DNA of 64,000 nucleotides. It comes from Patescibacteria group bacterium. GTDB taxonomy: Bacteria; Patescibacteriota; Minisyncoccia; UBA6257; GWB1-50-10. A program made the position numbers and the translations under genes. The notes below the pieces were generated by a model. That model did not search any database. It worked only from the letters and a program-made list of their open reading frames with translations, and had not been told where the DNA came from. This document shows, piece by piece, positions 18,960-64,000 of the stretch (positions are counted from its first letter, which is position 1; every line of letters begins with the position of its first letter). The DNA lies in assembly GCA_024239035.1 (NCBI GenBank), contig JANBVK010000001.1, forward strand, positions 107,010-171,009, read 5' to 3'.

Positions 18960-19495
18960 AAATCGAATTCATGGACGGAAACATTGCCTATGTGAGGCGT
19001 TTTTTCTGAAAATAGATGGTGCGCAAGACGCACAATGCCACTGTGTGTCACAACAAGAATAATTTTATCGTGATAATCACGCTTTGATCCTTCTATAAAT
19101 TGAATTAGCCGCTGCTTGACGTCTTTCACTGATTCTCCTCCATACGGACGGAAGTCGTACTGTTGATTTCTACTAGCAATCTTATTAACCTTACCCTTTG
19201 TTTCCTGTTCTATCTCATCCCACGATTTTCCTGCAAGCGAACCAAACGAACGATCTTCTAAGTTCTTGTCTAACACTAAGGGCTTGTTAAAGCGCTGCTT
19301 GATAGCCTCCGCGGTTTGACTTGCCCGCTTGAGCGGAGAAGAAATAATGACGTCAAAATCACCGCTCAATTCTGCTGCAAGATCCTCTGCTTGCTTCATA
19401 CCTACCTCATTAAGCGGAGCATCTATGTCACTTCCCATAGGTTTTCCCTCTCTATTATAATCTGTCTCCCCGTGCCGAACAAAAATAAATTTCAT
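18956..19495 (-). CDS. Histidine phosphatase family protein (phosphoglycerate-mutase-like)
   Basis: FVRHGETDYN catalytic RHG motif and a later H in VVTHSGIVR. 4-nt overlap with lepA. Confidence 0.85.
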   Translation of the reverse strand: MKFIFVRHGETDYNREGKPMGSDIDAPLNEVGMKQAEDLAAELSGDFDVIISSPLKRASQTAEAIKQRFNKPLVLDKNLEDRSFGSLAGKSWDEIEQETKGKVNKIASRNQQYDFRPYGGESVKDVKQRLIQFIEGSKRDYHDKIILVVTHSGIVRLAHHLFSEKTPHIGNVSVHEFDL

Positions 19496-21337: not shown

Positions 21338-21440
21338 AGCGTGTTGAGGCGAAATCCTGAGGAAAACCGAAGGGCTCCGGTTCGATAGTGAACTTTTGTT
21401 TGCAATTCTGACATTTCGAAGACACTGAGCTTGTCGAATG
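21338..21440 (-). pseudogene. Relic 5' fragment of a Cys-rich paralog (encodes CQNCKQKFTIEPE..DFA then stop) immediately upstream of the paralog 1 start
   Basis: tccggttcgatagtgaacttttgtttgcaattctgacat matches the paralog 2 5' coding region 23231..23271 at 32 of 41 positions. Frame is disrupted. Confidence 0.5.
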
Positions 21441-21464
21441 TGGTTTCGTTTCGGAATTCATAAA

Positions 21465-21502
21465 TTAATTACGTAATTAAATACGTATTTTAATACGTAA
21501 AT
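21465..21502. promoter_or_regulatory. Array of three TACGTA-centred palindromes at 12-bp spacing (AATTACGTAATT, AATACGTATT, TAATACGTAAAT) in the paralog 1 upstream region
   Basis: TACGTA at 21470, 21482 and 21494. The first two are perfect palindromes. Confidence 0.5.
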
Positions 21503-23290
21503 TCATACTACCTCCGCCTGATAACATTGTTCGCAGTAAACAATCTCCTTCCTCTCCGGAGCGTATGATGTCTCAAACTCGTTAGGGCATCTTCCTTCCA
21601 AGTGGTGGGAATGTTTTGTAGTGTTTTTGTATTTTGTAGCTTGCTCTGAGCCTGTCGAAGAGTCACACACGCACTGGCGGTGCCAAAGGTTTATAGGATT
21701 TCTTCTTCTGAAACGTGCATAATACCGGCAGTTGGGACATAGCCTAGGGAGAGGGATATTCATTTTTCTATAAAAATTGAGTTCATCAGAAACAATTCGG
21801 AAAGCCGTTACACACCTCTCTCCACATTTGCCCTGATGTGCACAACTAATAACTTCTTTCACAATACTGTCATCAACGTCTCTTATATGGTCAGGAAGTT
21901 GCTCTGCAGAGACAGTGATCTGATAAGAAGGTTTTTCGAGGTCACGCCAATTAAATCCTTGAGCAAGAGCGCGTTCTTTATCCAGCGGAAAGTAATCATA
22001 GGCCGGCGTTTCATTATAGGGGAAGGGAGACAGTTCTGTTGGAAAGAATTCTCCGTGAGCATATATCTTTCCCTTTTTATCTTTATATGACGCCTCGTTC
22101 AAGTGGTCTATAATTTGAAGAACAAGCTCCTCATATTTTTCTTTAGTATATTCTTTGTTTAAAATGCAATACTCCTTCTTGCGAAGTCCGATACACCCAA
22201 ATAAATCATGGCATCCGTTTTTACATATGTCACAATAGGTAATATTTCGCACTTCTGGCCAGGCATCCGAAGATAATTTCACATTGTAGGCATTCACGCC
22301 CATGGTGTTCACCTCATAGTTCAATTCCATCACGCAACACCCGTTGTTGATATCCATGGAATCCTTCGCTTTATTTACAAAAAGGCAATATCGGCAGTTT
22401 TCAAGTTCAGCCCCATTGAAACAGTGATAACAATCTTTAGAGTATGAAATCGTGTTTCCAACGACATTTGTTACGTTTTTAGTATAGGCATGTTTGTGCA
22501 ATGCTTTCTTTCTCATTGCTTCAAATTTAGCGGCATACGTTGAAAAATTCTTATACGAACCCGTATCAATGTCTTTCATTTTTTGCTTATAGTCCTCTTT
22601 GGTACATTGCTTATTTTCAAACACGTGAGACTTGTTCCAAATATTGCTGCTTAAAAAGCAATCTTGGGAACCCCTGGCATCGAAACAGAACGAAAGCCCC
22701 GTAGAACTCGCACAGTTTTCAACAAATATAAGTTGTGACACCTCGAGGCATTCGATACATTCATAACAATACTCTCCCCGGAGCACTATGAAACAATCAA
22801 CCAAGTTTTTAGAGTTCAAAATTCTGTAGCTATACATCGAGTCCTCGTTGTCCGAGCCTGAAAAAATGAGATAGCAATTTTTGCAATTTGCAATCTGGTT
22901 TGCGTATTCACAATTCACGCATTTATCAACTTGGAGCGCTACTCGAGGTACTTTATTCTGCAGCTCCTTAAATTGTGTAAAGAACGGTTTATTAAAATTG
23001 TATTCTCTTCCATATTGCGTTCCATCCCACTTATCTGAATACCAGCACTCTCGGCAATATACGGGGAAAGTCACATCCTGAGGATACATAGCAATAATAT
23101 CCTTGCGACAAAGGTCACATATTCGTTTATGAAGGCTTCTCTCATTTCGCCAAGAAAGTCTGCGTTGCAGCCGGCACGGAGGACACCACGTAGGCGCCGG
23201 CACTTTTATCTTCTCATAAAACGCAAAATCATCCGGTTCGATGGTAAACTGGTTTTTGCAGTTTTGACACTGTCTGGCCTCTTGTGTCAT
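21503..23290 (-). CDS. Cys-rich multi-CxxC zinc-ribbon protein, paralog 2
   Basis: Same architecture and termini as paralog 1 (CQNCKNQF...CPPCR at the N-terminus, YCEQCYQAEVV at the C-terminus). 35-bp nucleotide-identical patch with paralog 1 (GCCGGCACTTTTATCTTCTCATAAAACGCAAAATC). Confidence 0.8.
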   Translation of the reverse strand: MTQEARQCQNCKNQFTIEPDDFAFYEKIKVPAPTWCPPCRLQRRLSWRNERSLHKRICDLCRKDIIAMYPQDVTFPVYCRECWYSDKWDGTQYGREYNFNKPFFTQFKELQNKVPRVALQVDKCVNCEYANQIANCKNCYLIFSGSDNEDSMYSYRILNSKNLVDCFIVLRGEYCYECIECLEVSQLIFVENCASSTGLSFCFDARGSQDCFLSSNIWNKSHVFENKQCTKEDYKQKMKDIDTGSYKNFSTYAAKFEAMRKKALHKHAYTKNVTNVVGNTISYSKDCYHCFNGAELENCRYCLFVNKAKDSMDINNGCCVMELNYEVNTMGVNAYNVKLSSDAWPEVRNITYCDICKNGCHDLFGCIGLRKKEYCILNKEYTKEKYEELVLQIIDHLNEASYKDKKGKIYAHGEFFPTELSPFPYNETPAYDYFPLDKERALAQGFNWRDLEKPSYQITVSAEQLPDHIRDVDDSIVKEVISCAHQGKCGERCVTAFRIVSDELNFYRKMNIPLPRLCPNCRYYARFRRRNPINLWHRQCVCDSSTGSEQATKYKNTTKHSHHLEGRCPNEFETSYAPERKEIVYCEQCYQAEVV

Positions 23291-23300
23291 GGGTTATAAA

Positions 23301-25403
23301 TCACTTCCTAAGCGTCAAATCCAATATCACCCTCGCGTCCGGATCTTCATCTTCATAAATGAATATTGGGCTATTTGACTCCGACCAAACATAACCTAAC
23401 GGCGCCCCGAGAGTTACCCTCAAATTGCTCTTTACACCTGATTGGCGTTCAAAGATAAACCGGAACCTCTTTCCTGAACTCACACGAACTTGGTTGCCGC
23501 TCGGCGTTTGGTAACGCAGGTTCAACGTGCGGGTCTTCCCGGCCGGCGTCGTAAACCACGTTGCAAAAACACTTTTCCCGTGCGCTTCCATACTCCAGGC
23601 ATCATAGCCGGCAATGAGCACTCTGGTCTCCTCAATCTCTTGAAGATCGGCATTTACAGCGTATCCCTCACCATCATAATCAGGCCTCCGAAAACTTTTA
23701 GTACTGTTTCCTTTCAAAGAGACTAGGGTGGAGGCGGGATTTGTAAATATTTGAATAAAATTCTGATTATCTTTACGCCACCAGGGATCTTCTTGTTTAT
23801 CCCCTTCGTGTTTCCGTTCAATTGTTAAATCAGTAAAAACACCGCCGTCAGTATCAATATCCAGTCTTACCTCCAGCCGCTGCCGAACAAAAGCATCACT
23901 TTTACCGCCGGCGATATTAGCATCCACCACTGCAAGATACGAGCCCCAAAAACTGCTGGGCAACGGATAAACAGCACCGTCAATATTCTTAGAATTTAAG
24001 AAAGCCGCTAGGTCACCTTCTTTCGCAAAAATCATAATGTCTTTTTTGGTAATATGCCTTTCTAACTCATCAATTAGAGACCTTTGTCCTTCTTCTCCCA
24101 TCTGATCTAACCTCTCAAGAATGAGAGGAGTTAGCACGCTCAATACTTTTTTCGGATTCTCTCCTTTTTTCTTATCCCGGCCCGTTTCAACCTCTTTCTG
24201 AATCTCAATCAAAAAGTTATCTCGGTCTACCACTAAATCATATTCCTCTATCGGGACCGGACCAATAATACCGAGAATGGTCTCCATCACATTAATGTTT
24301 AGGGCAATAACGCCCTTGAAAGTAACGTCCTGCTCTTTGTAAAGTTTAGAGTTCTCTAAAAACCCCGTCACTGTTCTGGCAGAAGTAGGAAAGTCAAAAA
24401 ACCAATTAGCGTCTCTCGCTCCCCAATCCTTAGTTACTAACTGGAGCGGATCGGGCGGAATCACTTTTAATTCAAGGTTAAGAGGATGATCCGGCCAATA
24501 AATATCCTGAACTTCCAGGTTGGTCATCTGACCCCGCTCTACCTGCAAATCTGCGTAACTGCCAATAAAACCGCCGCCAGGTCTGATTTCGGCCGGATTT
24601 TGAAATAAAAGAAGAATATGGATCTCGTCTTCCGAATCAATAAGAGCAAGGAGCCCACCCAAGAAGCTGTCCAGATTATGAAGATCGGAACTATATTTAA
24701 GGTATTGATCGCCAATCTGCCCCTCAACGTTTTCAAAGAAAGAAGAAATAGATTTAAGGTTGGCGGCTGTATTTCTTATTGATTCAATCTGGCCAGTGAC
24801 TCCCTGTATTGACCCACGGATACCTTCTAAACGGTCAACAAGAGCTTGGCCGTCATTTTGGAAGTAATAAAAACCGTTCCCTTTCAGATCATTTAATGCC
24901 TCGGAGAGTTCTAAAAAATTAAGATTCAGGGCACTAATCTGACTTAAAAAGGCACCTGCTTCTTTAAAGGCCGGCAAGATGCTGCCGACGACGCTAAAGA
25001 GCACTCGGTTTTGCGGTCTCTCTAAAATGGCATTCAAACTTGATAATTCTTCAGTATTTTCTTTTAGGGCCAAACCAGCTTCAGCGGGTTCAAAAGCTCT
25101 GAGCGCCCCAACTGAAAAGGTAAAATTACTTACAATCTTATCTCCCTTCTCCACAATAAGCGCTTTTACTTCTTTGAGATTGAACGCAAGAAGAGTACCC
25201 ATAAGAATAAAAACCACCACTACTAAAGCTGTCCCCCATCTCAAAAATTTTTTATAAAATCCAAATCGGGCAGGTTCCTCTTGGAGCACATGAGTTAGAT
25301 TCAACTTAACAAACCTAACCGGCTGTTTATAATTGATACCTGGTTTTCTTATATCAACTAAAACCGGATCAATATTTTTAGCGGGTACAATTCGTTTTTT
25401 CAT
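23301..25403 (-). CDS. Large membrane-anchored extracytoplasmic protein, possibly DUF4012 family (polysaccharide-locus associated)
   Basis: 700 aa with a single N-terminal TM after about 60 residues. Sits next to GT4 and sugar-transferase genes. Confidence 0.4.
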   Translation of the reverse strand: MKKRIVPAKNIDPVLVDIRKPGINYKQPVRFVKLNLTHVLQEEPARFGFYKKFLRWGTALVVVVFILMGTLLAFNLKEVKALIVEKGDKIVSNFTFSVGALRAFEPAEAGLALKENTEELSSLNAILERPQNRVLFSVVGSILPAFKEAGAFLSQISALNLNFLELSEALNDLKGNGFYYFQNDGQALVDRLEGIRGSIQGVTGQIESIRNTAANLKSISSFFENVEGQIGDQYLKYSSDLHNLDSFLGGLLALIDSEDEIHILLLFQNPAEIRPGGGFIGSYADLQVERGQMTNLEVQDIYWPDHPLNLELKVIPPDPLQLVTKDWGARDANWFFDFPTSARTVTGFLENSKLYKEQDVTFKGVIALNINVMETILGIIGPVPIEEYDLVVDRDNFLIEIQKEVETGRDKKKGENPKKVLSVLTPLILERLDQMGEEGQRSLIDELERHITKKDIMIFAKEGDLAAFLNSKNIDGAVYPLPSSFWGSYLAVVDANIAGGKSDAFVRQRLEVRLDIDTDGGVFTDLTIERKHEGDKQEDPWWRKDNQNFIQIFTNPASTLVSLKGNSTKSFRRPDYDGEGYAVNADLQEIEETRVLIAGYDAWSMEAHGKSVFATWFTTPAGKTRTLNLRYQTPSGNQVRVSSGKRFRFIFERQSGVKSNLRVTLGAPLGYVWSESNSPIFIYEDEDPDARVILDLTLRK

Positions 25404-25421
25404 GAATATGCTGCGTTTTTA

Positions 25422-26519
25422 TTAAACCGCAAAACCGTTCTCGGAGACAATATGGCGTATGTTCTCCTTAAACTGAACTTTAGAAAACCGCTCCGCCCGC
25501 TTGCTAATATAAGAACGGTCAAATGACGTTCGCTCAAAATCTTGAACTGCATTCATTAATGTCTGAACGGACTGCTCTCCGAAAAGCAGCCCGGTTTTCC
25601 CGTGCTCAACAATTTCCCTTCCGCCGCCCTCGTTATATGCGATAACCGGCAGACCGCAGGCCTGTGCCTCAGCCGCCACCAACCCGAAATCTTCAATCTG
25701 CGGGAATACTAATGCTTTAGCATTACTGTACATTCGCCGTAACTCACTATCGCTCAAAAAAGGAATAAATTCCACATATTGAGAGTCGGCAAGTTTTTGA
25801 AGTTTGCTCATCTCCGGACCAACCCCAACAATCTTCAATGGTTTTTTTAAACGGTTGAACGCCTTAATCCCTAAATCAAATCCCTTGTAATAAAGCAAAC
25901 GACCCGCCATTAAAAAATATTCTTTCCCGGAAGTAATGGGTTCCGGATAAAAAGTCTCCGTATCAACCGGAGGGTAGACGACGCGTGCCTCCCTGCCGTA
26001 ACACGACTGGACTTTCCCGGCGATAAACTCGGAATTAGCAATAAAGAAATCAACTTTCTGCGCGGCTCTCTTATCCCACGCACGCAGTAAGCGGGCAATA
26101 GGACGAAGGATGCCTTTTGTAAGAGGCCATGGGGAAAAGGGTAAATTCTTCAGATAATCTATCTCCCACGCGTAACGGAGCGGGCTGTGACAATAACTTA
26201 TGTGATATGGGGCGTGTATAGAAATACCTTTGGCGTATCCGGCAGTAGACGAAATAACGAGGTCGTATTTCTCGGGACTCCGTAGTAATCTCGCTGCAAA
26301 GGGCATTAGAGGTATAAAAGCACGATGGCGCCCCCTCACAAAAAAACTATCAAGAATGCTCGTTTTTCTTATGTTTTTCCTGAAAAACCCAAACGTCTTT
26401 TTCTCATCATAAAGGAGAGTATAAAGATCGGCTTTGGGGAAAATTTCAAGGAGAGTCATCAAAACCCTCTCCGCCCCTCCAAATTGGTTCAAATAATCAT
26501 GAAGAATAGCAACACGCAT
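25422..26519 (-). CDS. Glycosyltransferase family 4 (GT-B, retaining)
   Basis: C-terminal FPQIEDFGLVAAEAQACGLPVIAYNEGG (EX7E-type GT4 signature). Confidence 0.85.
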   Translation of the reverse strand: MRVAILHDYLNQFGGAERVLMTLLEIFPKADLYTLLYDEKKTFGFFRKNIRKTSILDSFFVRGRHRAFIPLMPFAARLLRSPEKYDLVISSTAGYAKGISIHAPYHISYCHSPLRYAWEIDYLKNLPFSPWPLTKGILRPIARLLRAWDKRAAQKVDFFIANSEFIAGKVQSCYGREARVVYPPVDTETFYPEPITSGKEYFLMAGRLLYYKGFDLGIKAFNRLKKPLKIVGVGPEMSKLQKLADSQYVEFIPFLSDSELRRMYSNAKALVFPQIEDFGLVAAEAQACGLPVIAYNEGGGREIVEHGKTGLLFGEQSVQTLMNAVQDFERTSFDRSYISKRAERFSKVQFKENIRHIVSENGFAV

Positions 26520-26611
26520 CCCCTCATTTTATAACTTTTTCCTGCCTTGCGCCATAAATTTACCGGAGAAAACCAACCACCAAAAAGATTTTTCTGTTTC
26601 TGAAGAAAACC

Positions 26612-27199
26612 CTAAACCCCCGTGGGGTCAGAAAAGAAAATCCAAACAGTTTTAAAAAGTATCTTTATGTCTAACCAAAGTGACTGATGTTCAACGTAAT
26701 AAAAGTCCAACTCCAATTCCTTAAAATACGGCAAAGCCGACGCGCCGCTCACCTGTGATAGACCGGTGAGTCCGGCTTTTGCAAAATACAATTTCTTAAA
26801 TCCCGGAGGATACTGCGCGACTTCTTCTGGCTCATGCGGCCGCGGTCCCACCAGCGCTAATTCTCCTTTTAAAACGTTTAAAAACTGCGGAAATTCATCC
26901 AACCGAAATTTCCGCAGCAATTTCCCAACCCCCGTAAGTCTCGGGTCGTCCTTAATTTTAAAAAACGGCCCGTCGTTCCGCTCATTCAAATGAGCGAGAT
27001 TTCTTTTTGTAGCATGCGCCCCCTGCACCATTGAGCGGAATTTATATACCTTAATAACCTTTCCCCCGCTTACCCGATCAAGTTTAACTAAAACCGGCCG
27101 ACCGCCATTAAGTACGATCGCCAAAACAATAAAGGGTGTAAGCGGAAGAATAAACAATAACCCACAAACAGCACCTATGATATCAAAAAATCGTTTCAT
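26612..27199 (-). CDS. Sugar transferase (polyprenyl-phosphate glycosyl-1-phosphate transferase, WbaP/EpsL C-terminal domain type)
   Basis: Single TM then KFRSM, DEFPQFLNVLKGELALVGPRP and KAGLTGLSQV motifs typical of bacterial sugar transferases. Confidence 0.85.
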   Translation of the reverse strand: MKRFFDIIGAVCGLLFILPLTPFIVLAIVLNGGRPVLVKLDRVSGGKVIKVYKFRSMVQGAHATKRNLAHLNERNDGPFFKIKDDPRLTGVGKLLRKFRLDEFPQFLNVLKGELALVGPRPHEPEEVAQYPPGFKKLYFAKAGLTGLSQVSGASALPYFKELELDFYYVEHQSLWLDIKILFKTVWIFFSDPTGV

Positions 27200-27867
27200 G
27201 GAATTATTATGACAAACTCACCCTTCTTTTTTTCTCCTTGAAAATGCGATTGAGTCTCCAACATACTCCCCCTAAAAATTTCTTCGTGCAGTTTAGTAAG
27301 TTCTCGCGCAACAATAATTTCATATCCCTCTCCAAAAACTTCACTAATACTCGCCAGAGTTTTCTCCAGGCGGTGCGGTGATTCGTAAAGCACTATTGGT
27401 CTTACCTCAATAATCTCTAATTTTTTAAAAAAAGTCTGTCTCCCCTTCTTGTGGGGTGGATACCCTAAAAACGTAAATCTGTCGGCGTTCACTCCAGAGA
27501 CTGATAAAGCAGTGACAAGCGCCGACGGTCCCGGGATGGGAATAATTTTAGCGTCGGGAAGTTCTTCTTGAATAAATCTTACCAACCTCGAGCCGGGATC
27601 AGAAATCCCGGGCGTCCCTGCGTCAGAGACAAGCGCAACTCGTTCTCCTTTTCGCAACCTGTCACCTACCTCGCCGTGCACTCGCTCTGCTATGTGTTCA
27701 TCGTATCGCTTAAGCGGTTTTTTGACGTCATATTGATTTAGGAGTTTCTTAGTAACCCTCGTATCCTCCGCTAAAATCAAATCAACCTGCTTTAAAATCT
27801 CAAGCGCCCGCAGAGTTATGTCTTTCAAATTACCAATCGGAGTGGCGACAACGTATAATATACCCAT
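27196..27867 (-). CDS. rsmI: 16S rRNA (cytidine1402-2'-O)-methyltransferase RsmI (tetrapyrrole-methylase fold)
   Basis: GILYVVATPIGNLKDITLRALEIL N-terminus, typical of RsmI. Start taken at MGILYVV (the ORF-track start 27903 is probably too long). Confidence 0.8.
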   Translation of the reverse strand: MGILYVVATPIGNLKDITLRALEILKQVDLILAEDTRVTKKLLNQYDVKKPLKRYDEHIAERVHGEVGDRLRKGERVALVSDAGTPGISDPGSRLVRFIQEELPDAKIIPIPGPSALVTALSVSGVNADRFTFLGYPPHKKGRQTFFKKLEIIEVRPIVLYESPHRLEKTLASISEVFGEGYEIIVARELTKLHEEIFRGSMLETQSHFQGEKKKGEFVIIIP

Positions 27868-27917
27868 AATTCTTTGTTTCTTTATGTTTATTATTATACA
27901 CATTATCTCCGCTTAAA

Positions 27918-54488: not shown

Positions 54489-56360
54489 TTAGCGCAGTTT
54501 TATTCGGTTCTCATAGTACCACGAAAACACATCTCTAGCTACTGGCACAACGTTTAAACTTCCCTCCCGGGCATCTTCCACCAAAACCAAAATTGCAATC
54601 TGAGGTTCGCCAGCTAACGGATCGTAAGGAGCGTAACCAACAAAGAATGCATTAACTTTTTCATTGTTATTAACCTGAGAGGTACCAGTTTTAGCCGCAA
54701 CGCTAACCGGTAAACCGCTCAAAAGATTAGCGGTCCCGTACGGTCTAACTACCGCATCTCTCATCCCCTGCTGAACCTCTTTTACATAACCGCCAATTCC
54801 CTGACTTATGTCTTTTAAAACGGTGGGTTTACTCCTAATAATTTCTTCCCCCTCACGGTCGATAACCGATTTCATAATACGGAGTTGATAGAATTCACCG
54901 CCCGTAGCTATGGCACTTATGTAGTTTAAAAGAGTAATGGGCGTCACCAATAAATCCCCTTGCCCAATACTTACATTGTAAGTGTCACCCAATCGCCAAG
55001 TTTCCCCTTGTTCATTTTTCCAGTAAGGATCCGGCAGAAAACCAGGAACCTCTCCCGGCAAATCAATTTCTGTCTTCCCTCCCAAATTAAATTTTTGCCA
55101 CCAATCTTTCAACTTAGTAATCCCTAAACCCTGTTGGTTTTTGAATCCACCACCAACTTCGTAAAAATAAACATTGGAAGATCTCGCAAGCGCACTATGA
55201 AGATCAACCCAGCCGTGAGGCCGCCAATCTAAAAAGAGACTTGGGGGAGAATCGGGACTGTAGGGATTGGGGATCTCAATAAAGCCAGCAGAAAAAATTT
55301 CAGTCCCAGGATTAACAACCCCCTCAACCAGAGCCGCTGTAGCGACAAGTGGTTTAATAGTTGAGCCGGGGGCGTACAACCCGCTCACGGCCCGATTGAA
55401 AAAAGGCTGATTATTGCTTTCCAAAAATCCAGCTACGTTATTGGCATCAAAACCCGGAATACTGAAAAGAGCCAAAACCTCACCATTCTGAGGATTAATG
55501 GCAATACCAACGCCTATATTCCTGTCTAACTCAGAAAGCGCCTGCATTAAACGGTTATAAAAGTACTCTTGAAACTCCCGATCGATAAACGTTTCTAACT
55601 TACCGCCCACCTGAGACAACGCTGACACCCTCTTTTCTTTAATCTTGCCTACTGCATCGCGCAAGAAAATCTCCCGTCCGTTTACACCTCGCAAACTGGC
55701 GTCATAGTACGCTTCCAAACCCGCCTTACCAATCTCATCATCAATAAACAAACCCGGACTCTGTTTTAAGTCGTGAACGCTAACCAAACCGGTAAAACCG
55801 AGTAAGTGGGAGAAAGTAAGAGATAATTCATGAACCCTTTTAAAACTCTGTTCAACCCGGAGACCCGGCACGTTATCCGATTCAAGAATAGCTATCTGAT
55901 TATGGTCTAGATCTCCGGTTAAAAAAAGTTTCTCACTAGAACCCCAGTCTTTCTCCTTAATTCTTTGGTCCAATTCTCTCTGATCTATCCCTAAAATCTC
56001 ATTAATTCTCCTAAAAACGGATAACCGATCATCCAAATTTTTAGGCAACTCGTGGGGCACTAAAAAAGTATTAAGAGTCTGCTCATTACGAATTAAGGGA
56101 ATACCAAAACGATCCACAATCACTCCCCGCGGCGCTGGTTCTACTTCAGCATAACTTATATTAGCCAAAGATCGCGATGTATAAAAAGAGTTGTTAAAAA
56201 CCCCCAAATTCACTAATTGGCCAATAACTACTAGAATCAAAAACAGAACCAATACAAAGAAACTTTTAAACACCCTATCACCCAAAGGAACCTCAAGAAG
56301 ATCTTCTTCCACGACCTTATCCGTCAAAATATCTTCTAAATTAATATCCCGTTTATTCAT
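54489..56360 (-). CDS. mrdA: Penicillin-binding protein 2 (elongasome transpeptidase)
   Basis: SxxK (GSTIKP), SSN and KTGT motifs. Lies directly downstream of mreBCD. Confidence 0.85.
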   Translation of the reverse strand: MNKRDINLEDILTDKVVEEDLLEVPLGDRVFKSFFVLVLFLILVVIGQLVNLGVFNNSFYTSRSLANISYAEVEPAPRGVIVDRFGIPLIRNEQTLNTFLVPHELPKNLDDRLSVFRRINEILGIDQRELDQRIKEKDWGSSEKLFLTGDLDHNQIAILESDNVPGLRVEQSFKRVHELSLTFSHLLGFTGLVSVHDLKQSPGLFIDDEIGKAGLEAYYDASLRGVNGREIFLRDAVGKIKEKRVSALSQVGGKLETFIDREFQEYFYNRLMQALSELDRNIGVGIAINPQNGEVLALFSIPGFDANNVAGFLESNNQPFFNRAVSGLYAPGSTIKPLVATAALVEGVVNPGTEIFSAGFIEIPNPYSPDSPPSLFLDWRPHGWVDLHSALARSSNVYFYEVGGGFKNQQGLGITKLKDWWQKFNLGGKTEIDLPGEVPGFLPDPYWKNEQGETWRLGDTYNVSIGQGDLLVTPITLLNYISAIATGGEFYQLRIMKSVIDREGEEIIRSKPTVLKDISQGIGGYVKEVQQGMRDAVVRPYGTANLLSGLPVSVAAKTGTSQVNNNEKVNAFFVGYAPYDPLAGEPQIAILVLVEDAREGSLNVVPVARDVFSWYYENRIKLR

Positions 56361-56364
56361 TTAT

Positions 56365-56820
56365 TCATTCTTTTAAAAAACGAAAAATAGGCCAAATAAC
56401 AAACCCTAAGATAAGATTATACAAAACCTCTCCTAAAACTAAACCCACCGATATCAATGAGAACCGGAATACATTGATAATTAAATAAAAAATCACCGTC
56501 CCCAAAAGAATAGCAATCAAGAAATCCAGCATATTGTTACCGGTTAATATCCGCTTTAAAAAATAAAAACCTATAGCTAAAACTACCACCACCAACACTT
56601 GAGGAAACCAGTAAGGGGTTAGGGTAAAAAACACTGCCGCCATTGATAAAAGCAACGCCCCCAAAAACCAAATATTATCTAGTTTAAAAATAATCAACAA
56701 AAAACTAATAAGAATTAAATTAGGGTTGATACTACCTAAACTTAAAATCCCAGACTGCTGCAGAAAAAACGCGGCAACAACCGCTAAAAATACCAATAAA
56801 AATTTTATGTATATGTTCAC
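56365..56820 (-). CDS. mreD: Rod shape-determining protein MreD-like membrane protein
   Basis: Small polytopic membrane protein in the mreB-mreC-mreD position. Confidence 0.5.
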   Translation of the reverse strand: MNIYIKFLLVFLAVVAAFFLQQSGILSLGSINPNLILISFLLIIFKLDNIWFLGALLLSMAAVFFTLTPYWFPQVLVVVVLAIGFYFLKRILTGNNMLDFLIAILLGTVIFYLIINVFRFSLISVGLVLGEVLYNLILGFVIWPIFRFLKE

Positions 56821-56821
56821 A

Positions 56822-57535
56822 TCAAGGAAAATCTGTTATAACTAAAACCTTATTAATATTCTCCAGCCGATATAACGTTGTTAGCTCGGCAGCAAGCCAC
56901 GCCTCATTCGAAACAGGTTTTACTTCGCCTATAGTTCCAATTAAAAGATTTAGAGGGAAATCGGGAGAAATATTTAAGACCTCATCTCCTAAATTAATAT
57001 TGGCTCCCAGAGAAATTAGATCTAAAGAAGGAGGTGTTCCCCCTTTCAAAAGAGCTTTTGTATCTTCACTGCCGATAATTACACTACTCCGCCATTCAGG
57101 GTTAAAAACGGTTTCAACAACGCTCTGCGATCTCAAAACATCTTTAACTTTCCCCAGAAGAATATTTTCGTTTATTAAAACCGGCATTCCCGGCTCAATT
57201 CCATCCCGAGCACCAATGTTTATGACTACAAAACGCCGATCATTAAAAGGGTAACGTGAATAAACTTGTCCTACTTGGTAAGAAAAATGCTCTGAAATAA
57301 TTACCCCTTCTTCTAACTTACCAAGTTTTGCCAATAAACCTTGATTCTCAAGCTCCAAATCCCGAAATCTTTGATAATCAAATGCCCCATCCCAAAAACT
57401 TAAATTCAGAGCCCTAAATTCTTGGAGAACCCCATTAACACCGCCGCGATAAAAAAATGCCAAAAATAAAAAAAATAAAGTTAAAAAAAGAACTAAAAAA
57501 AATTGTGGAGATTTCATCCCAACAAAAAACTTCAC
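56822..57535 (-). CDS. mreC: Rod shape-determining protein MreC
   Basis: N-terminal TM, coiled coil, beta-rich C-terminal domain. Follows mreB with a 4-nt overlap. Confidence 0.6.
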   Translation of the reverse strand: MKFFVGMKSPQFFLVLFLTLFFLFLAFFYRGGVNGVLQEFRALNLSFWDGAFDYQRFRDLELENQGLLAKLGKLEEGVIISEHFSYQVGQVYSRYPFNDRRFVVINIGARDGIEPGMPVLINENILLGKVKDVLRSQSVVETVFNPEWRSSVIIGSEDTKALLKGGTPPSLDLISLGANINLGDEVLNISPDFPLNLLIGTIGEVKPVSNEAWLAAELTTLYRLENINKVLVITDFP

Positions 57536-58554
57536 CCCAACTTCAAATTGGAAAAATTATCTAAAAGATGACTGTATTTATCGAAATTCTCAACAACAAC
57601 ACCTGTCCCCCTCACAACACAGGTTAAGGGATCGTCTACCAATTTAACTTCAACGCCGGTCTCTTTCTGCAACATCTGATCAACACCCCTCAACATACTG
57701 CCTCCTCCGCACATATAAACTCCGTTTTTATGGACGTCACCAACCAACTCAGGAGGAGAAGCTTCAATTAAATCTTTCAACCCCTCGTGAATAAGTCTTA
57801 GGGGACGACCGAGCCATAGACGCACTTGAGTGTCTTTAACAACAATCTCCCGAGGCAAACCACTTACCACGTCTCTCCCTCTTATCTGCACCTCCAAGCG
57901 TTCTGATTGAGGAATTGCCGCGCCGACAGCGATTTTTATGTCTTCGGCCGTTGGCTCACCAATACTTAACTTAAGTTCATCTCTTACTGACCTTATAATT
58001 TCACTATTCAGGAAATCACCGGCAACCTCAAGTCGTTTTGAGACAACTATCCCATTCATGGAAATAATTGCCATATCAGTCGTGCCGGCACCAATGTCAA
58101 CAACTAAATATGCAGTCGGCTGATGAATATCAAGTTGACTGCCTAGGGCAGCAACAAGCGGCTGCTCGACTAAGTGCACCTCATTTGCACCCGACTCCTT
58201 CAATAAATCTTCTACTGACTTCCTCTCAACCTCCGTTAGATTAGTAGGAACACTTACAATCATTCTCGTAGACCAAGACCACGGAATATGACCATCTTTT
58301 AAAAAGTGTTGAGTCATCTCACGAGCCATATCAAAATCGGCAATAACTCCGTGAATTATAGGCCTCGAAACCGTAACGTGAGCCGGCGTCCGACTCCGCA
58401 TTGTTTTTGCGTGATCACCATAAGCAACAATCCTGTTGGTCCGGTTATTAAAAGCTATAACAGAAGGTTCATTAACCACTACTCCGTTCTTGTTCAAATA
58501 AATCTGAGTCGTATCAGTTCCCAAATCAATGCCGATATGTTTTTTTAAAATCAT
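57532..58554 (-). CDS. mreB: Rod shape-determining protein MreB (actin homolog)
   Basis: IGIDLGT...VVDIGAGTTD...MCGGGSML actin-fold ATPase motifs. Confidence 0.9.
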   Translation of the reverse strand: MILKKHIGIDLGTDTTQIYLNKNGVVVNEPSVIAFNNRTNRIVAYGDHAKTMRSRTPAHVTVSRPIIHGVIADFDMAREMTQHFLKDGHIPWSWSTRMIVSVPTNLTEVERKSVEDLLKESGANEVHLVEQPLVAALGSQLDIHQPTAYLVVDIGAGTTDMAIISMNGIVVSKRLEVAGDFLNSEIIRSVRDELKLSIGEPTAEDIKIAVGAAIPQSERLEVQIRGRDVVSGLPREIVVKDTQVRLWLGRPLRLIHEGLKDLIEASPPELVGDVHKNGVYMCGGGSMLRGVDQMLQKETGVEVKLVDDPLTCVVRGTGVVVENFDKYSHLLDNFSNLKLG

Positions 58555-59810
58555 GATAAAGTTTTTATTATTTCTTCTAATTTCATCAACTTGGTCTCTT
58601 TCTCGTTCCTGTGCTTAACCTCTAGTTTTTCCTGAACTATTGTTTTCTCACTCACCACCAATCTCACGGGCAGACCAATTAGATCGGCGTCGTAGAATTT
58701 TTCCCCTGCATGAACCTGGGCCCGATCATCATAAAGCACTTCTATTCCCGCCTTAGCCAGTTTATTATAAGCAATATCTGCTTGCTTTTTCAATGATGAT
58801 GTCATCTCCCCTACTGCCAGAAGGTGAACTTTGAGGGGAGCAACCGACTCCGGCCAAATAATTCCCTGCTCGTCGTGATGAATCTCGGAAACGGTCCCCA
58901 TCACTCGTCCTAAACCAATACCGTACGAACCCATCACTACATATGCTTTCTTGCCGTCTTTGTTTACAAACTGTAAATTAAAGGCTTCGGAATATTTCGT
59001 ACCAAGCGGAAAGATGTTGCCCACTTCAATAGTTTTTATTTTATCTAGAACTCCTTTTTGACATTCGGGGCACTGGTCTCCTCCTTTGTTTTTAGAAATC
59101 TCTTTATTCTCTGCAAAATTACAGAGGCGGCATAAAACAATCTCATCCTCACCCGCAGGAGACTCCACTTGAAATTCGTGCGTATTCGAAAATGTAAAAT
59201 CCCCGCCGGCGGCAGTGGTATAGATTGATTTTAAGCCGCATCGTTTGAAAATTTTTTCATAGGCGCCTTTTACCTCATTATAGTAACGAAACATATCTTC
59301 TAGAGAAACATGGAAACTGTACAAATCTTTCATTATAAACTCCTTTCCCCGCAGAAGCCCCGATCGAGCCCGCGGCTCATTCCTGAACTTTGACTGGATT
59401 TGATACGCCGCAAACGGCAGGTCTTGATAAGAACTTATGTATTTAGAAACGATATCGGTAAGCACCTCCTCATGTGTCCACCCGAGAACAAAACCGGGGG
59501 TTTTTTCTTCCTTACCTTTCACCTCAAATCCTATCCCAACGTCCCATCGCCCGCTCTTATCCCAATATTTCTTCTCAACGAGCGCGGGCATTAACATCTC
59601 TTGCCCGCCTATAGCGTTCATCTCCTCCCGGATAATAGCCGAAATCTTCCTAATTACCTTCCAACCCAAGGGGAGGTATGAATACACGCCGCCCGAATTT
59701 TTATAAACAAAGCCTCCTCTCTCAAGGAGCTTCGCATTAACACTAACTTCATCCTTAGGGTCCTCCTTATATGTTCTAGAAAAAAGCTCCGACTGCCGCA
59801 TAAACCCCAT
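58551..59810 (-). CDS. proS: Prolyl-tRNA synthetase (short form lacking the editing domain)
   Basis: Class II aaRS motifs, C-terminal anticodon-binding domain, 419 aa. Confidence 0.85.
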   Translation of the reverse strand: MGFMRQSELFSRTYKEDPKDEVSVNAKLLERGGFVYKNSGGVYSYLPLGWKVIRKISAIIREEMNAIGGQEMLMPALVEKKYWDKSGRWDVGIGFEVKGKEEKTPGFVLGWTHEEVLTDIVSKYISSYQDLPFAAYQIQSKFRNEPRARSGLLRGKEFIMKDLYSFHVSLEDMFRYYNEVKGAYEKIFKRCGLKSIYTTAAGGDFTFSNTHEFQVESPAGEDEIVLCRLCNFAENKEISKNKGGDQCPECQKGVLDKIKTIEVGNIFPLGTKYSEAFNLQFVNKDGKKAYVVMGSYGIGLGRVMGTVSEIHHDEQGIIWPESVAPLKVHLLAVGEMTSSLKKQADIAYNKLAKAGIEVLYDDRAQVHAGEKFYDADLIGLPVRLVVSEKTIVQEKLEVKHRNEKETKLMKLEEIIKTLS

Positions 59811-59831: not shown

Positions 59832-60800
59832 CTACAACTCTTCTTTTTCCAGACAGCGGGCCATCGGTAGAAATTTTTTCACCAGGAAGAGTGCGTAGCT
59901 TTTCGGTACATACTTGATGGGTACATGATACAAATCAACCCAGACATGACTGTAAATTGCAAAGAGTATAGATTGTTTTAAATAGTGCCGCTCTTTTTTT
60001 GATAGCTTTCTTTTTTTTAAATATCCCTCTAGAAATTTTTTAGTTAACGCTCTATCCAACCGTCCTTTACTCTCACAATTCCACATAATTGTTTTTCCCA
60101 CATCGAACACAAAAGAGTCCACATACGTATTGCCGAAATCAATCACCCCAGTTAATTTCTCTCCAATAAAAAGTTCGTTGTCGAGTTTGATGTCCACGTG
60201 GATTGGGCCCCGAGGAAGCCATTTGGGCAGACGATTATTCAGAACTCCCCGTTTTACCTCTTCAACAACTGCCTTTAGCTGGGGATGAGTTTGTCTTTTC
60301 ACATAACGATACATTAATGCCATTATTTTAGGGTTTAGGTCGTAAAATCTCCGCCTGCCCCGCATTGTCTTTTTGAACTTACTGCCCAACTTATGAAATT
60401 CTCCAACAAATTCACCAAGCTGATACGCCATCTTTGGTGTAATTCTTTTTGGTTGCCGACCGGGCAAAAATCGATACACGCTTACTGCGTATCCTTTGAA
60501 ATTCTCAAGATATTTTCGGCGTTTTGATGGAATATAATGAGGAACCGGTAAACGTTTCAGGTGTGTAAGAAAATTTATCTCGTGCAGGAGAGCGATTCTC
60601 GGCACGATCTTCATATCCGCAACAACGACTTTCTTGCTGGACAAATTGTGCTTTGCAACGATAAATTTCCCCTTCGGGGTTGTAATTGCTACCTTTGGCG
60701 TCTGATACCCCTGCCGGAAATACGTAATGTTCCCTATCTTACCAAGCTCAAATAAGTCTGTAATCTGCTGATATTCCCTTTTAGAAAAAAATTTAAGCAT
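59832..60800 (-). CDS. APH/CotS/homoserine-kinase-II family protein-kinase-like protein, translationally coupled to the upstream Cys-rich paralog
   Basis: Brenner motif IHVDIKLDN and DFGNT. AUG (MLKFF) 2 nt after the paralog 3 stop with GGAGG 10 nt upstream. The ORF-track start at 60836 overlaps the upstream gene. Confidence 0.65.
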   Translation of the reverse strand: MLKFFSKREYQQITDLFELGKIGNITYFRQGYQTPKVAITTPKGKFIVAKHNLSSKKVVVADMKIVPRIALLHEINFLTHLKRLPVPHYIPSKRRKYLENFKGYAVSVYRFLPGRQPKRITPKMAYQLGEFVGEFHKLGSKFKKTMRGRRRFYDLNPKIMALMYRYVKRQTHPQLKAVVEEVKRGVLNNRLPKWLPRGPIHVDIKLDNELFIGEKLTGVIDFGNTYVDSFVFDVGKTIMWNCESKGRLDRALTKKFLEGYLKKRKLSKKERHYLKQSILFAIYSHVWVDLYHVPIKYVPKSYALFLVKKFLPMARCLEKEEL

Positions 60801-60802
60801 TT

Positions 60803-62551
60803 CTACACCACCTCCGCCTGATAACACTGCTCGCAATATACAGTCTCCGGTCTATCAGGAGAATACGAAGACTGCATAGACTTTCCACATTTCACGCATT
60901 TTCTCTCATACAACTCCAGCACGATAGAGCCGAACTTTTTTCTTTTCTCTGCCAACCGTACACTGTAATGTTTCTGGGGTAAGGGAAGATTATATCTCCT
61001 GTAAAACTCTAATTCTGCCTTTATATAGCGGGATTTCTTATTATTTTCGCTGTCAAAGACAACTTTATTCAAAATATCGTCTTTCACCTCACGAATATCC
61101 TTAGGAAGATCTTTTGAATCAACGATTTCTCCTTCCACCTCATACAAAGTCTCCTGGATATCTTCTGTCCGATATCCATACCTCCTCGCCGTCTCAACGT
61201 CATCATATCCTTTATAGGAGGTAGCAATAGAAATATTGTAGGGAAACGGTGAAAGTTTGGGTGGGAAAAATTCTCCATATTCACCTTTCTCTAACATTTT
61301 TGCCTTTACTTTATCTACCATCTCCCAATAGTCTTTCTCAGCGTACTGCTTATTGAGAATACAGAACGATTTATTTTTAAGTCCGATGCAACCAAAACAG
61401 TCGTGGCAGTTAATACAGAGATCACAATATTCTATCTCACGGCAATCATCAACATCAATGGAAAATTTAATCCCGTAGTTATTGTCACCTGCCCAAGATT
61501 CATAACTAAACTCCGTACCTACACCGCCAACAATATCGTATGAATCTCTGGTTTTCGTAACTCCAATGGAATATGCCACGTTTTCCCCACCAATAATATA
61601 AAAACAAGCGTAACAATTTTTGGAATCCTTAATATAATCACCAAAACTTGCGACCGCTCGGTCGTTGTGAGTTTCTTTATAAAACGCCTTCTTTTTCAAT
61701 TCGGTGAACTTTCCTTTTAAAGAATTTAAAGATTCTCGGTCGCCAAGATTTAACGCTCGTATCTTCTCCTCATAAGCCTTTTTAGTCAACGGTTCATTAA
61801 AAAAGTGGTACTTTTTGTGACGCAAATTCACACAACCAAAACAGTATTCGCAATCTCGACAATCGAAAAGGAAGTAGGAATAGAGACAATGCTTCGAGTG
61901 CTCCACAAAAAAACAATTGAAGAGATCAGAACTTTCGAAACAATCGTAGCAGGTATCAGAGTTTCTCAGTGCAAAACCATCAAAGCAACTTCGCGAATCA
62001 ATCAAAGAAATACTATACGCACTATCTTCAGATTGGTAAGAATCAAAAATTAAATAGCAGTTTTTCAGTCGAGTCGAGTTATTGGTATAATCACTCCTAA
62101 TGCTTGTACTATCAATGTGGAGATTGGGCCGAGGAACGTTCCGCATAAGCTCTCCAAATTGATCAAAGAATCCCCGGCTATCGGTGTAGGCGCTGGCATA
62201 ATCGTTAGGATCCCATTCCTCGCCAAACCACATCTGATGTTCATAAACTTTGTATGGTGTGGTAGGGGGGTACTGAGAAATAATCGACTTTTTAGAAAAA
62301 GATGATACTACCTTAAAAAGATTGTAAGAATTCGTAAAAGCAATTTTTCTCCGTATACGTTCCTTGGGAGATAACGTTGGCAGAGGCACCCGCATTTTCT
62401 TGTAAAACTCAATATCTTCCGGACGAACGTAAAATTTCTCACCAGAAAATCGGCAAGTCCTCCACTGACCTCCCTTCTCATCTAATTCAAGTTTGGAAAA
62501 GTATTCATCCAGCGCTTTATCAAATTGTGGAGTTTTGCTCACTTGATTCAT
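60803..62551 (-). CDS. Cys-rich multi-CxxC zinc-ribbon protein, paralog 3 (N-terminal ribbon Cys lost)
   Basis: Same conserved blocks (KNCYLIFDS, CRDCEYCFGC, CDLCINCHDCFGC, GEFFPPKLSPFPYN, LEFYRRYNLPLP) and YCEQCYQAEVV terminus. Confidence 0.8.
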   Translation of the reverse strand: MNQVSKTPQFDKALDEYFSKLELDEKGGQWRTCRFSGEKFYVRPEDIEFYKKMRVPLPTLSPKERIRRKIAFTNSYNLFKVVSSFSKKSIISQYPPTTPYKVYEHQMWFGEEWDPNDYASAYTDSRGFFDQFGELMRNVPRPNLHIDSTSIRSDYTNNSTRLKNCYLIFDSYQSEDSAYSISLIDSRSCFDGFALRNSDTCYDCFESSDLFNCFFVEHSKHCLYSYFLFDCRDCEYCFGCVNLRHKKYHFFNEPLTKKAYEEKIRALNLGDRESLNSLKGKFTELKKKAFYKETHNDRAVASFGDYIKDSKNCYACFYIIGGENVAYSIGVTKTRDSYDIVGGVGTEFSYESWAGDNNYGIKFSIDVDDCREIEYCDLCINCHDCFGCIGLKNKSFCILNKQYAEKDYWEMVDKVKAKMLEKGEYGEFFPPKLSPFPYNISIATSYKGYDDVETARRYGYRTEDIQETLYEVEGEIVDSKDLPKDIREVKDDILNKVVFDSENNKKSRYIKAELEFYRRYNLPLPQKHYSVRLAEKRKKFGSIVLELYERKCVKCGKSMQSSYSPDRPETVYCEQCYQAEVV

Positions 62552-62558
62552 ACTCTAT

Positions 62559-62582
62559 TTAACAATTCGCGCGAATTGTTAA
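62559..62582. promoter_or_regulatory. Perfect 24-bp palindrome TTAACAATTCGCGCGAATTGTTAA filling the 32-bp spacer between paralogs 4 and 3
   Basis: Self-complementary over all 24 nt. Confidence 0.55.
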
Positions 62583-62583
62583 G

Positions 62584-64000
62584 TCATACTACCTCAGCTT
62601 GATAACACTGTTCGCAATAAACGACTTCTGGTCGGTCAGGGGCATAGGTTGTTTGAATTGACTTACCACATTTCGCACACTTCCGCGCGTAGAGTTTGAA
62701 GGGCCCCCGGCGGCGGAGACGATCAAGATAACGGCAGTTAAAACATTTCAGCGGTACAGGAATGAGCATCTTTCGATAAAACTCCAACTCTGGCTGAATT
62801 AAGCGGTAATTGAAACTACAACCCGTACACTTCAGCACTTCCTTCACAATGCTGTCAGGAATGTCTTTAATATGATCCGGTATATCTTCGGGTTGAATCG
62901 TTTCGTGGCCTTTCGTACGGGGAATATCATCTTCCCATCGAAATCCTTCAGCAACTGCCTGCTCTTTAGATAAAGGATAATTCTCTTGGGCTGGCGTCTC
63001 GTTGTAGGCGAAAAACGCAAGTCTTAGTGGAAAATATGAACCATATAATCCATCCTGTTCCATCTGTCTAACTATCTGATCTCGCATTTTACTGTAGTCT
63101 GATTCACTATACTGTTTATTTAAAATATAGTACTTTCCATTCTTCAACCCATCACATCCGAAACATTCCTCTGATCTACTCATGCCAAAACAGTACCGAA
63201 GTCCTCTGCAAGAATCACACCCCCATGACCCAATTACATTGTACGAGTATCCAACCGCAACGGTTTCCAACAAAAGCTCAGAGTCATACCCATATCCCAT
63301 AACGTCATAGCTATCCCTAGTAGATTTTGTAGCAAACTCAAATTTACAATCCTCTGATTCAGTTACCTCGAAACAGTGTTTACAATTCTTCGAATTGAAA
63401 ATATACTCCCCTTCTGAACCAACAGACTTTAAATTATTATTCTGCCTACGAGGGAACTGAAGCGCATGCTCCTCAAATTTCTCAAGCGCATCTTGAACCT
63501 TTTTATAACTCCCGGCAATCTCGGCAACTCTTTTCTCATATTCTTCTTTAGACAACGCTTCATTAAAAAAGTGATACTGCTTGTTACGCAAATTAACGCA
63601 CCCAAAGCAATCTTGACAGTTACTACAACCAAGTAAAAACCACGAGTTCAAACAGCTCATCACGTTCTGACCGTACCGCACGCCGTGGCTTTTATGCCCG
63701 TTAATGCATTCGTAAGATTGTTCAAGACTAATCGCGAAATAGATATCCAAAGAATCCCGACAATCTTTCACCCCACGCGAATAAGCTACATCTTCGTTAT
63801 AACCGCTATTAAATATTAAATAACAATTCTTGTTATATCCGGCGAAATTTTGGTATTCACTATTAACACTCGTACCTATCGTTGTATAAACGCTTTTCTT
63901 CGGTACCTTCAGCATTAACTCCTGTAATTGATCAAAGAACGCCCTCGAAGGATTATAATCTCGGGCAAAAGACTTTGCATCCCATTTATCTGAGTTATAA
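62584..64000 (-). CDS. Cys-rich multi-CxxC zinc-ribbon protein, paralog 4, 5'-truncated by the window edge
   Basis: The frame remains open upstream of the ORF-track Met to the window end (reads ...YNSDKWDAKSFARDYNPSRAFFDQLQELMLKVPKK, homologous to the WDxxxYGxEYxFxKPFFxQ block of the other copies). Ends YCEQCYQAEVV. Confidence 0.75.
   Translation of the reverse strand, partial: YNSDKWDAKSFARDYNPSRAFFDQLQELMLKVPKKSVYTTIGTSVNSEYQNFAGYNKNCYLIFNSGYNEDVAYSRGVKDCRDSLDIYFAISLEQSYECINGHKSHGVRYGQNVMSCLNSWFLLGCSNCQDCFGCVNLRNKQYHFFNEALSKEEYEKRVAEIAGSYKKVQDALEKFEEHALQFPRRQNNNLKSVGSEGEYIFNSKNCKHCFEVTESEDCKFEFATKSTRDSYDVMGYGYDSELLLETVAVGYSYNVIGSWGCDSCRGLRYCFGMSRSEECFGCDGLKNGKYYILNKQYSESDYSKMRDQIVRQMEQDGLYGSYFPLRLAFFAYNETPAQENYPLSKEQAVAEGFRWEDDIPRTKGHETIQPEDIPDHIKDIPDSIVKEVLKCTGCSFNYRLIQPELEFYRKMLIPVPLKCFNCRYLDRLRRRGPFKLYARKCAKCGKSIQTTYAPDRPEVVYCEQCYQAEVV

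Follow-up and report, generated by a model that had tools for sequence, protein, structure and literature searches.

The 3' part of a 64,000-nucleotide (nt) stretch of DNA from a Patescibacteria group bacterium (assembly GCA_024239035.1, contig JANBVK010000001.1, positions 107,010 to 171,009 of the forward strand; hereafter the window) contains the last genes of a head-to-tail array that comprises at least six genes for Cys-rich proteins, referred to here as the Zn-finger/beta-solenoid family. The last array gene, paralog 3, stops 2 nt before the start codon of an APH-fold kinase gene, an arrangement that the original prediction, made from the letters of this region alone, had taken as a sign of functional pairing between the two proteins. 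We favour a different explanation, to which we give a probability of about 60%: the region holds the 3' end of an array belonging to an ancient, Parcubacteria-wide family, and the kinase, which is of the small-molecule type, sits at the boundary between the array and a housekeeping block by descent in one clade. The adjacency of the kinase to the array is real, it is limited to a clade, and it concerns whichever array copy is last. The pairing with paralog 3 is not conserved, and a functional pairing of the two is probably absent. All genes of the locus are on the minus strand in the open reading frame (ORF) list of the window, and the features are as follows:

62584 to beyond 64000, minus strand: paralog 4 of the Zn-finger/beta-solenoid family, located by ORF and alignment, stop codon TGA at 62584-62586, 5' end cut by the window edge
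62552-62583, minus strand: spacer of 32 nt between paralog 4 and paralog 3
62559-62582, no strand: perfect 24-bp palindrome TTAACAATTCGCGCGAATTGTTAA, beginning 1 nt after the paralog-4 stop codon
60803-62551, minus strand: paralog 3, 582 amino acids (aa), stop codon TAG at 60803-60805, C-terminal tail VYCEQCYQAEVV
60811-60815, minus strand: GGAGG, within the codons GCG GAG GTG (Ala-Glu-Val) in the tail of paralog 3, 10 nt upstream of the kinase ATG
60801-60802, minus strand: gap of 2 nt (AA) between the paralog-3 stop codon and the kinase ATG (TAG-AA-ATG)
59832-60800, minus strand: APH-fold kinase, 322 aa, ATG at 60800
58551-59810, minus strand: proS, beginning 21 nt after the kinase ORF; first gene of the housekeeping block proS to mrdA (54489-59810)
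57532-58554, minus strand: mreB, downstream of proS
56822-57535, minus strand: mreC, downstream of mreB
56365-56820, minus strand: mreD-like gene, downstream of mreC
54489-56360, minus strand: PBP2/mrdA

The extent of the array is seen on the public 729-kb scaffold L135, which was found through an exact look-up of the kinase sequence and matches the window without a difference over 14,169 nt; the same look-up with paralog 3 gave no match. Directly upstream of the window edge, L135 carries four further family genes (596 aa partial, 566, 588 and 590 aa), and its array then ends with paralog 4 (538 aa as called), paralog 3 (579 aa as called) and the kinase. Hence, paralogs 3 and 4 had rightly been recognized as members of one Cys-rich family, but the two-gene cluster proposed for them is in fact an array of at least six genes, with at least four more copies upstream of position 64000. 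Paralog 4 is truncated by the window edge as had been stated, and the complete gene on L135 extends ~310 nt past that edge. Near its likely true start, it contains a perfect in-frame 27-nt tandem repeat of 3.1 copies (L135 6493-6575, corresponding to 226-308 nt past position 64000), which encodes TLRQGSASS three times; the start chosen by the gene caller (MIEPDDF) omits both this repeat and the first ribbon CxxC. Paralog 4 orthologs with 51-59% identity are found in many loci.

The strongest evidence on the proposed pairing comes from the orthologs of paralog 3. A scan with paralog 3 covered one genome per species, with flanks searched to 8 kb, and seven of its best 80 loci (L001-L007) contain true paralog-3 orthologs with 51-62% identity, none of which has the kinase within 8 kb. 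The closest ortholog (L137, 72% identity) is followed by a gene for a VirD4-like ATPase, while the next one (66%, L138/L139, two copies of one contig) is preceded by a major facilitator superfamily (MFS) transporter gene and followed by a family gene. Thus, the kinase is next to a paralog-3 ortholog at 0 of 10 loci, which represent about nine distinct genomes (L001-L007, L137, L138/L139), and the neighbours at these loci are other family genes, the VirD4-like ATPase or the MFS transporter. The start of the paralog-3 ortholog overlaps with the MFS transporter gene in L138/L139 and with a 427-aa ORF in L007.

The kinase itself is rare, with relatives forming 68 clusters, all from Patescibacteria. 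In a metagenome scan with the kinase, 54 loci were obtained, and kinases with at least 97% identity were merged into lineages. Grouped by identity to the window kinase, their linkage to the family is as follows:

79-82% identity (L081-84, L085, L018/86/87, L088, L042): five of five lineages linked, the kinase ATG lying 2-5 nt past the end of a family gene, as in the window
68-74% identity (L090, L089, L091/92): L090 linked with a 7-nt gap; L089 (74%) and L091 (68%) without an upstream family gene
47-58% identity (about 16 lineages): three linked (L094, L096, L109); about 13 without a family gene in a flank of 2-7 kb
29-36% identity (five lineages): none linked

The expectation that a kinase gene would recurrently follow a family paralog in related genomes therefore holds in the five closest lineages and in L090, but it fails at the paralog-3 orthologs and for most distant kinases. 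Conversely, a kinase unlinked to the family, which would speak against a tie between the two, is found in part of the relatives (L089, L091 and the ~13 lineages with 47-58% identity). Between six lineages, the family genes located ahead of the kinase share only 37-53% identity, with kinases 53-82% identical to that of the window, and none of these family genes is a paralog-3 ortholog. Such values correspond to paralog-level divergence, indicating that a different, non-orthologous paralog precedes the kinase in each lineage. Among the best 80 family loci, only two contain the kinase, and its rarity next to a very large family argues that it is not a general partner of the family. In five or six of the lineages without a family gene, the gene directly upstream of the kinase and on the same strand codes for a hydrolase of the haloacid dehalogenase (HAD) family of ~330 aa (PF00702; L095, L102, L106, L107, L113, L117), which hints at a small-molecule kinase/phosphatase pair.

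The geometry of the junction between paralog 3 and the kinase is that expected of a translationally coupled gene pair, with a same-strand stop codon within a few nt of the start codon, and it allows co-transcription as well as termination-reinitiation. The spacing of 2 nt had been read correctly, and the start codon agrees with 28 orthologs whose alignments begin at residue 1 and with conserved ATGCTTAAATTT starts. Such spacing is ordinary for this genome, as 22 of the 47 same-strand neighbour pairs in the window are separated by no more than 10 nt. The GGAGG in the paralog-3 tail is placed at the distance from the kinase start that had been reported, and its description as a Shine-Dalgarno (SD) sequence of a kind rare in the window is accurate: GGAGG precedes one of the 57 gene starts in the window, that of the kinase, and four-base SD cores precede six others. 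As a conserved SD sequence, however, it does not stand, because, besides the window, only L085 and L096 have GGAGG, and the other relatives encode the Glu residue as GAA. A terminator scan called no terminator-like site at the junctions of the array and kinase region, and no known RNA family is found there, the three tRNAs of the window all lying elsewhere. The same-strand continuation into proS-mreBCD-mrdA was also described correctly; after proS come the mreB, mreC, mreD-like, PBP2 and greA genes, which overlap or lie a few bases apart.

The array runs, with no recognizable terminator in between, into the kinase gene and from there into the proS-mreBCD-mrdA operon. In the explanation that we favour, paralog 3 and the kinase would probably be co-transcribed, and they may be translationally coupled via the 2-nt gap, with the GGAGG serving as a fortuitous aid. 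The kinase would stay at the boundary by descent, and recombination among the paralogs would exchange the gene upstream of it; such an exchange would be made possible by the conserved 3' end common to all paralogs.

Residues 25-256 of the kinase match the Pfam phosphotransferase family APH (PF01636) with 78.9 bits, far above the cut-off of 23.2 (E 6.4e-22). The protein has the catalytic loop HVDIKLDN and an IDFGNT motif, which conform to the HxDxxxxN signature and the DFG-type metal-binding Asp; H201, N208, D221 and F222 are invariant among the 28 orthologs, D203 is conserved in at least 90% of them, and the ortholog consensus of the loop is HVDIKPxN. The calculated isoelectric point is 10.2. 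It scores under the cut-off of every specific NCBIfam family, including SrkA and all APH resistance models. For instance, it reaches 84.7 of 255.9 bits and 119.4 of 271 bits for the type II homoserine kinase models TIGR00938 and NF003558, respectively, and 38 bits for the CotS spore-coat family TIGR02906 (cut-off 172.7). Hence, of the earlier label APH/CotS-type, the first half is retained and the second is not. No match to the Hanks-type Pkinase model of Pfam was obtained at E ≤0.1, and the resemblance to that group is confined to the HVDIKxxN loop.

Among solved structures, sequence comparison gave a single relative, the Agrobacterium homoserine kinase 2ppq (E 2.8e-11, 21% identity), which is also the best Foldseek match (TM 0.81-0.84) of the AlphaFold2 model of the kinase, whose predicted local distance difference test score (pLDDT) is 91.4. 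It is followed by the N-acetylhexosamine kinase NahK (TM ~0.7), amicoumacin kinase, YtaA, YihE, and aminoglycoside and choline kinases. The closest classes are therefore type II homoserine kinase (ThrB_alt) and N-acetylhexosamine kinase. With these members of the APH/eukaryotic-like kinase superfamily the window kinase shares, in addition to the APH domain above cut-off, the HxDxxxxN loop and the DFG motif, and, as read from the sequence, a Lys residue (IVAK) and E74 at the positions of the beta3 Lys and alphaC Glu residues. In contrast to homoserine kinase, its loop HVDIKLDN carries a protein-kinase-like Lys residue. A threonine pathway would be unexpected for such a reduced genome. Based on the structural models, the substrate of the kinase is most likely a small molecule.

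Several observations weigh against placement of a small-molecule kinase by descent alone. A family gene is directly upstream of the kinase in ~10 of ~30 dereplicated lineages, which exceeds the 5-10% that we would guess for a random gene, so that a functional connection of some kind between the kinase and the family at large is possible, and three of these linked lineages have kinases only 50-55% identical to that of the window (L094, L096, L109). In addition, the HVDIKPxN loop together with the DFG motif is nearer to Hanks-type protein kinases than to the usual HGDxxxxN of APH enzymes, and the structural matches include the protein kinase YihE/SrkA. Lastly, the co-transcription and coupling of paralog 3 and the kinase are only what we infer from the junction.

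These points bear on three alternatives. The original prediction would have the kinase phosphorylate, or form a complex with, paralog 3, with the 2-nt gap and the GGAGG setting the stoichiometry through translational coupling. Such a scheme is in line with the short gap, with the GGAGG, found at no other gene start in the window, with the recurrence of tight family/kinase junctions in the closest kinase lineages, with the HVDIKLDN and DFG motifs, which look like those of a protein kinase, and with weak NCBIfam matches of the kinase to SrkA/YihE and Bud32. We consider it improbable, given that none of the ten loci with paralog-3 orthologs has a kinase, that the paralogs upstream of the kinase are non-orthologous between lineages and about 20 lineages have unlinked kinases, that the GGAGG is not conserved in relatives, that 68 kinase clusters compare with thousands of family clusters, and that the top structural matches of the kinase are small-molecule kinases. 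A tie to the family as a whole, in which the kinase of one clade would serve all copies, for example by phosphorylating their shared termini, and would for this reason be fixed at the 3' end of the last copy, fares somewhat better: junctions of no more than 7 nt occur in seven dereplicated lineages including the window, as well as in L094 and L096 (53-55% identity), and in L081-84, L090, L042 and L096 the kinase gene is located inside arrays. Yet most Parcubacteria with large arrays lack the kinase, as seen from its presence in two of the best 80 family loci, many kinase orthologs are unlinked and have the HAD hydrolase instead, and the linked cases are mostly close relatives that represent few independent events, leaving this alternative unlikely as well.

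The least probable alternative by far is that the kinase and the Cys-rich proteins constitute a lanthipeptide-like modification system acting on Ser/Thr residues. It can draw on the Cys-rich neighbours of the kinase and on a marginal hit in NCBIfam to LxmK, a class V lanthionine synthetase kinase (E 0.096), but this match, with 11.7 bits, is far under the cut-off of 315. Also, the family proteins are large, folded proteins of ~580 aa with confident models and not leader-core peptides, and no lyase, cyclase or transporter genes are found nearby in the window and the scaffold neighbourhood. Our preferred explanation for the position of the kinase is descent in one clade combined with array turnover.

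The family to which the array belongs is far larger than the group of kinases. A word-indexed search returned 1,913 relatives, all hypothetical by name and all from Patescibacteria, and a profile search of 1.84 billion representatives gave 2,110 clusters (50% identity) at E<1e-30 and 4,983 at E<1e-3. The best 80 loci and the window together contain 263 family ORFs, all on the strand of the query match. Single 17-kb loci hold as many as nine or more copies in an array, often with gaps of only -4 to 40 nt between them. The window holds another cluster of the family:

21503-23290, minus strand: paralog 1 of family cluster 1, located by alignment
19550-21337, minus strand: paralog 2 of family cluster 1, located by alignment; the cluster spans 19550-23290

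The four window copies are 33-40% identical to one another, and each has orthologs in other genera with 50-72% identity. As the orthologs are closer than the paralogs within the genome, the copies are ancient, and a reading of the array as recent duplicates or fast-evolving variants was rejected on these grounds.

Family proteins are soluble, have ~580 aa and a median of 33 Cys residues. They begin with a module of two ribbons and the motif FYxKxxVPxPTxCPxCR, continue with two Cys-rich solenoid domains, each ending in CFGCxxLRNKxY and followed by helices, and close with a C-terminal module and a near-invariant tail, C-Y-Q-x-E-V-V. The N- and C-terminal modules are homologous (E 6e-17), each being a two-ribbon zinc-finger module, and so are the two solenoids (E 9e-14). 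Over 237 members, the termini and solenoid caps are the most conserved parts and the solenoid bodies the most variable. No signal peptide, transmembrane or hydrophobic segment, or lipobox was found in family proteins. A role as secreted or surface proteins was accordingly rejected, and, judged by sequence, the proteins are cytoplasmic. The AlphaFold2 model of paralog 3 (pLDDT 87.7; predicted TM-score 0.86) contains two beta-solenoid domains and the C-terminal zinc fingers. Paralog 3 has lost Cys residues in its N-terminal ribbons, as had been noticed earlier, with CRFS in place of CQNC and SPKE in place of CPPC, and this loss is kept in its orthologs. The conclusion that the ribbon is dispensable is reasonable with respect to zinc binding, but the loss is restricted to the paralog-3 orthogroup, with the first-ribbon Cys residues retained in 95-99% of the 237 members, and the N-terminal module of paralog 3 still folds in the model (pLDDT 93-97).

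The C-terminal 35 residues of the family proteins have a CxxC-x17-CxxC arrangement followed by a helix, and it is over this stretch that they match the treble-clef finger models TIGR04272 and PF23477 and, with E 0.001, the second finger of the LIM domains of CRP. The four Cys residues C552, C555, C573 and C576 do not vary in 65 sequences, and 100% of the 237 members have them. Small archaeal proteins of M. mazei with CxxC-x17-CxxC bind zinc (PMC12704099). Scores for paralogs 3 and 4 stay below the cut-offs both of zf_Tbcl_2 (PF23477; 21.8 and 23.7 bits, cut-off 27) and of TIGR04272 (19 and 21.3 bits, cut-off 36). In contrast to these fingers and to LIM proteins, the family protein has ~580 aa, is mostly outside known families and carries four ribbons, this finger being one of them. 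No Pfam model covers ~90% of the family length, no solved structural relative was found, and no relevant literature on the family was found. Unlike narrow Cys-rich beta-solenoids such as insect antifreeze proteins and curli CsgA, and unlike left-handed beta-helix enzymes, to none of which they have sequence similarity, the family proteins are predicted to be cytoplasmic and carry zinc fingers on both flanks of their solenoids. With the arrays of mycoplasma surface proteins the family shares many tightly packed same-strand copies in a very small genome and signs of turnover, here a relic 5' fragment and an in-frame repeat, but its copies lack a signal peptide and lipobox, are ancient and have been kept individually across genera and are not fast-switching.

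A defence or phage origin of the family was considered and found to be unsupported: PADLOC gave one marginal match (HEC-02B, E 3.3e-4), to paralog 3 alone, PHROG 15341, which has no assigned function, weakly matches the solenoid in four of four paralogs (E 8e-7 to 0.01), and a tblastn search of 50,697 phage records gave no family match. Based on sequence and structural models, the family proteins are probably zinc-stabilized binding scaffolds with paralog-specific solenoid surfaces, in which a variable surface, held by the conserved termini and caps, would give each paralog its own target.

The spacer between paralogs 4 and 3 had been described as a perfect palindrome over its entire length; its length of 32 nt is correct, but only 24 nt (62559-62582) are palindromic. 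The palindrome is unique in the window, with none expected by chance. As RNA, it forms a weak, AU-rich hairpin of 10 bp (-9.3 kcal/mol, z -1.8) that is followed by AUAGAGU, without a U-tract. An intrinsic (rho-independent) terminator was rejected on account of the weak AU-rich stem, the missing U-tract and the negative terminator scan. In other genomes, perfect inverted repeats (arms of 8-17 nt, loops of 0-2 nt) are enriched between paralogs, being present in 17 of 58 inter-paralog spacers versus 18 of 164 other same-strand spacers (29% versus 11%; Fisher p = 0.003; 43% at convergent gene ends). These palindromes are similar in type, but unrelated and varied in sequence. The window has a second such element, a near-palindrome of 32 nt right after the paralog-1 stop codon (21469-21500). 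No palindrome of this kind is found upstream of the paralog-3 orthologs, where gaps of 0-6 nt or overlaps occur, and a conserved operator of paralog 3 was rejected because the element is missing at the orthologs and differs in sequence in other arrays. Our reading of the sequences is that the inter-paralog palindromes may be hairpins that punctuate the array transcript or that promote recombination.

The surroundings of cluster 1 and of arrays in close relatives provide some further observations. The 165-nt spacer between paralogs 1 and 2 (21338-21502, minus strand) contains a relic ORF of ~46 codons encoding ...KCQNCKQKFTIEPE..., which, judging from this stretch, is a leftover 5' fragment of a family gene. 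A histidine phosphatase gene (18956-19495, minus strand; His_Phos_1, E 1.4e-43) lies 54 nt downstream of cluster 1, and lepA comes next. The phosphatase recurs near arrays only weakly and distantly (27-30% identity in L022, L075, L081 and L084), and its position as an apparent counterpart of the kinase of the second cluster is therefore probably a coincidence. Upstream of cluster 1, genes for a DUF4012 protein, a GT4 glycosyltransferase and a bacterial sugar transferase (23301-27903, minus strand) suggest a cell-envelope glycan locus. In close relatives, the arrays are interspersed with small helix-turn-helix (HTH) genes (HTH_17 and ArsR-type HTH_5) and a Fic-domain gene; these genes, together with the MFS transporter gene of L138/L139 and the 427-aa ORF of L007 mentioned above, are at L137 1859-2529, L138 6674-6952 and 1769-3052, and L007 6734-8017.

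A more frequent neighbour of the family than the kinase is a soluble ATPase similar to VirD4/TrwB (PF10412, PF12696). In the best 80 family loci, which amount to 1.1 Mb, 29 such genes are present in 23 loci; 28 of the 29 share the strand of the array, and they are often a few to 250 nt from a family gene. They are placed as follows:

L001 6498-7994: VirD4-like gene near an array
L044 5992-7992 and 10020-11546: two VirD4-like genes near an array
L137 6176-7048: VirD4-like gene near an array
20 further family loci: VirD4-like genes near arrays

At about two genes per genome, as follows from the preprint cited below, and an assumed genome size of ~0.8 Mb, ~2.7 VirD4 genes per 1.1 Mb would be expected, so that 29 genes are observed in the array loci versus ~3 expected. 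One subtype of the ATPase has a C-terminal zf_Tbcl_2 finger (E 1.2e-11), of the same kind as the finger of the family. No VirD4-like ATPase is present in the 0.37 Mb of kinase loci or in the window. A 2025 preprint reported 5,713 VirD4 homologs in 2,918 genomes of the Candidate Phyla Radiation (CPR), of which 148 are near virB4 (10.1101/2025.01.22.634366). As a lead, the VirD4-like ATPases are thus a stronger neighbour of the family than the kinase. More speculatively, and with little weight attached to it, we hypothesize that the arrays could be a client or adaptor repertoire of orphan VirD4-like coupling ATPases, in which the solenoid surfaces would be paralog-specific and the zinc-finger termini would serve for docking; this would be a new selection or delivery system in episymbiosis, with the kinase as a clade-specific add-on.

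For the biology of these bacteria, the kinase link gives no route to the function of the family and merits limited effort. The family itself is noteworthy as a large, uncharacterized group of old, individually conserved paralogs: with at least eight copies of ~1.75 kb in this genome, it is a family that fills several percent of ~0.7-Mb genomes that have shed most biosynthesis. Its adjacency to VirD4-like genes offers a concrete lead on the role of the CPR coupling-protein homologs that are found far from type IV secretion genes.

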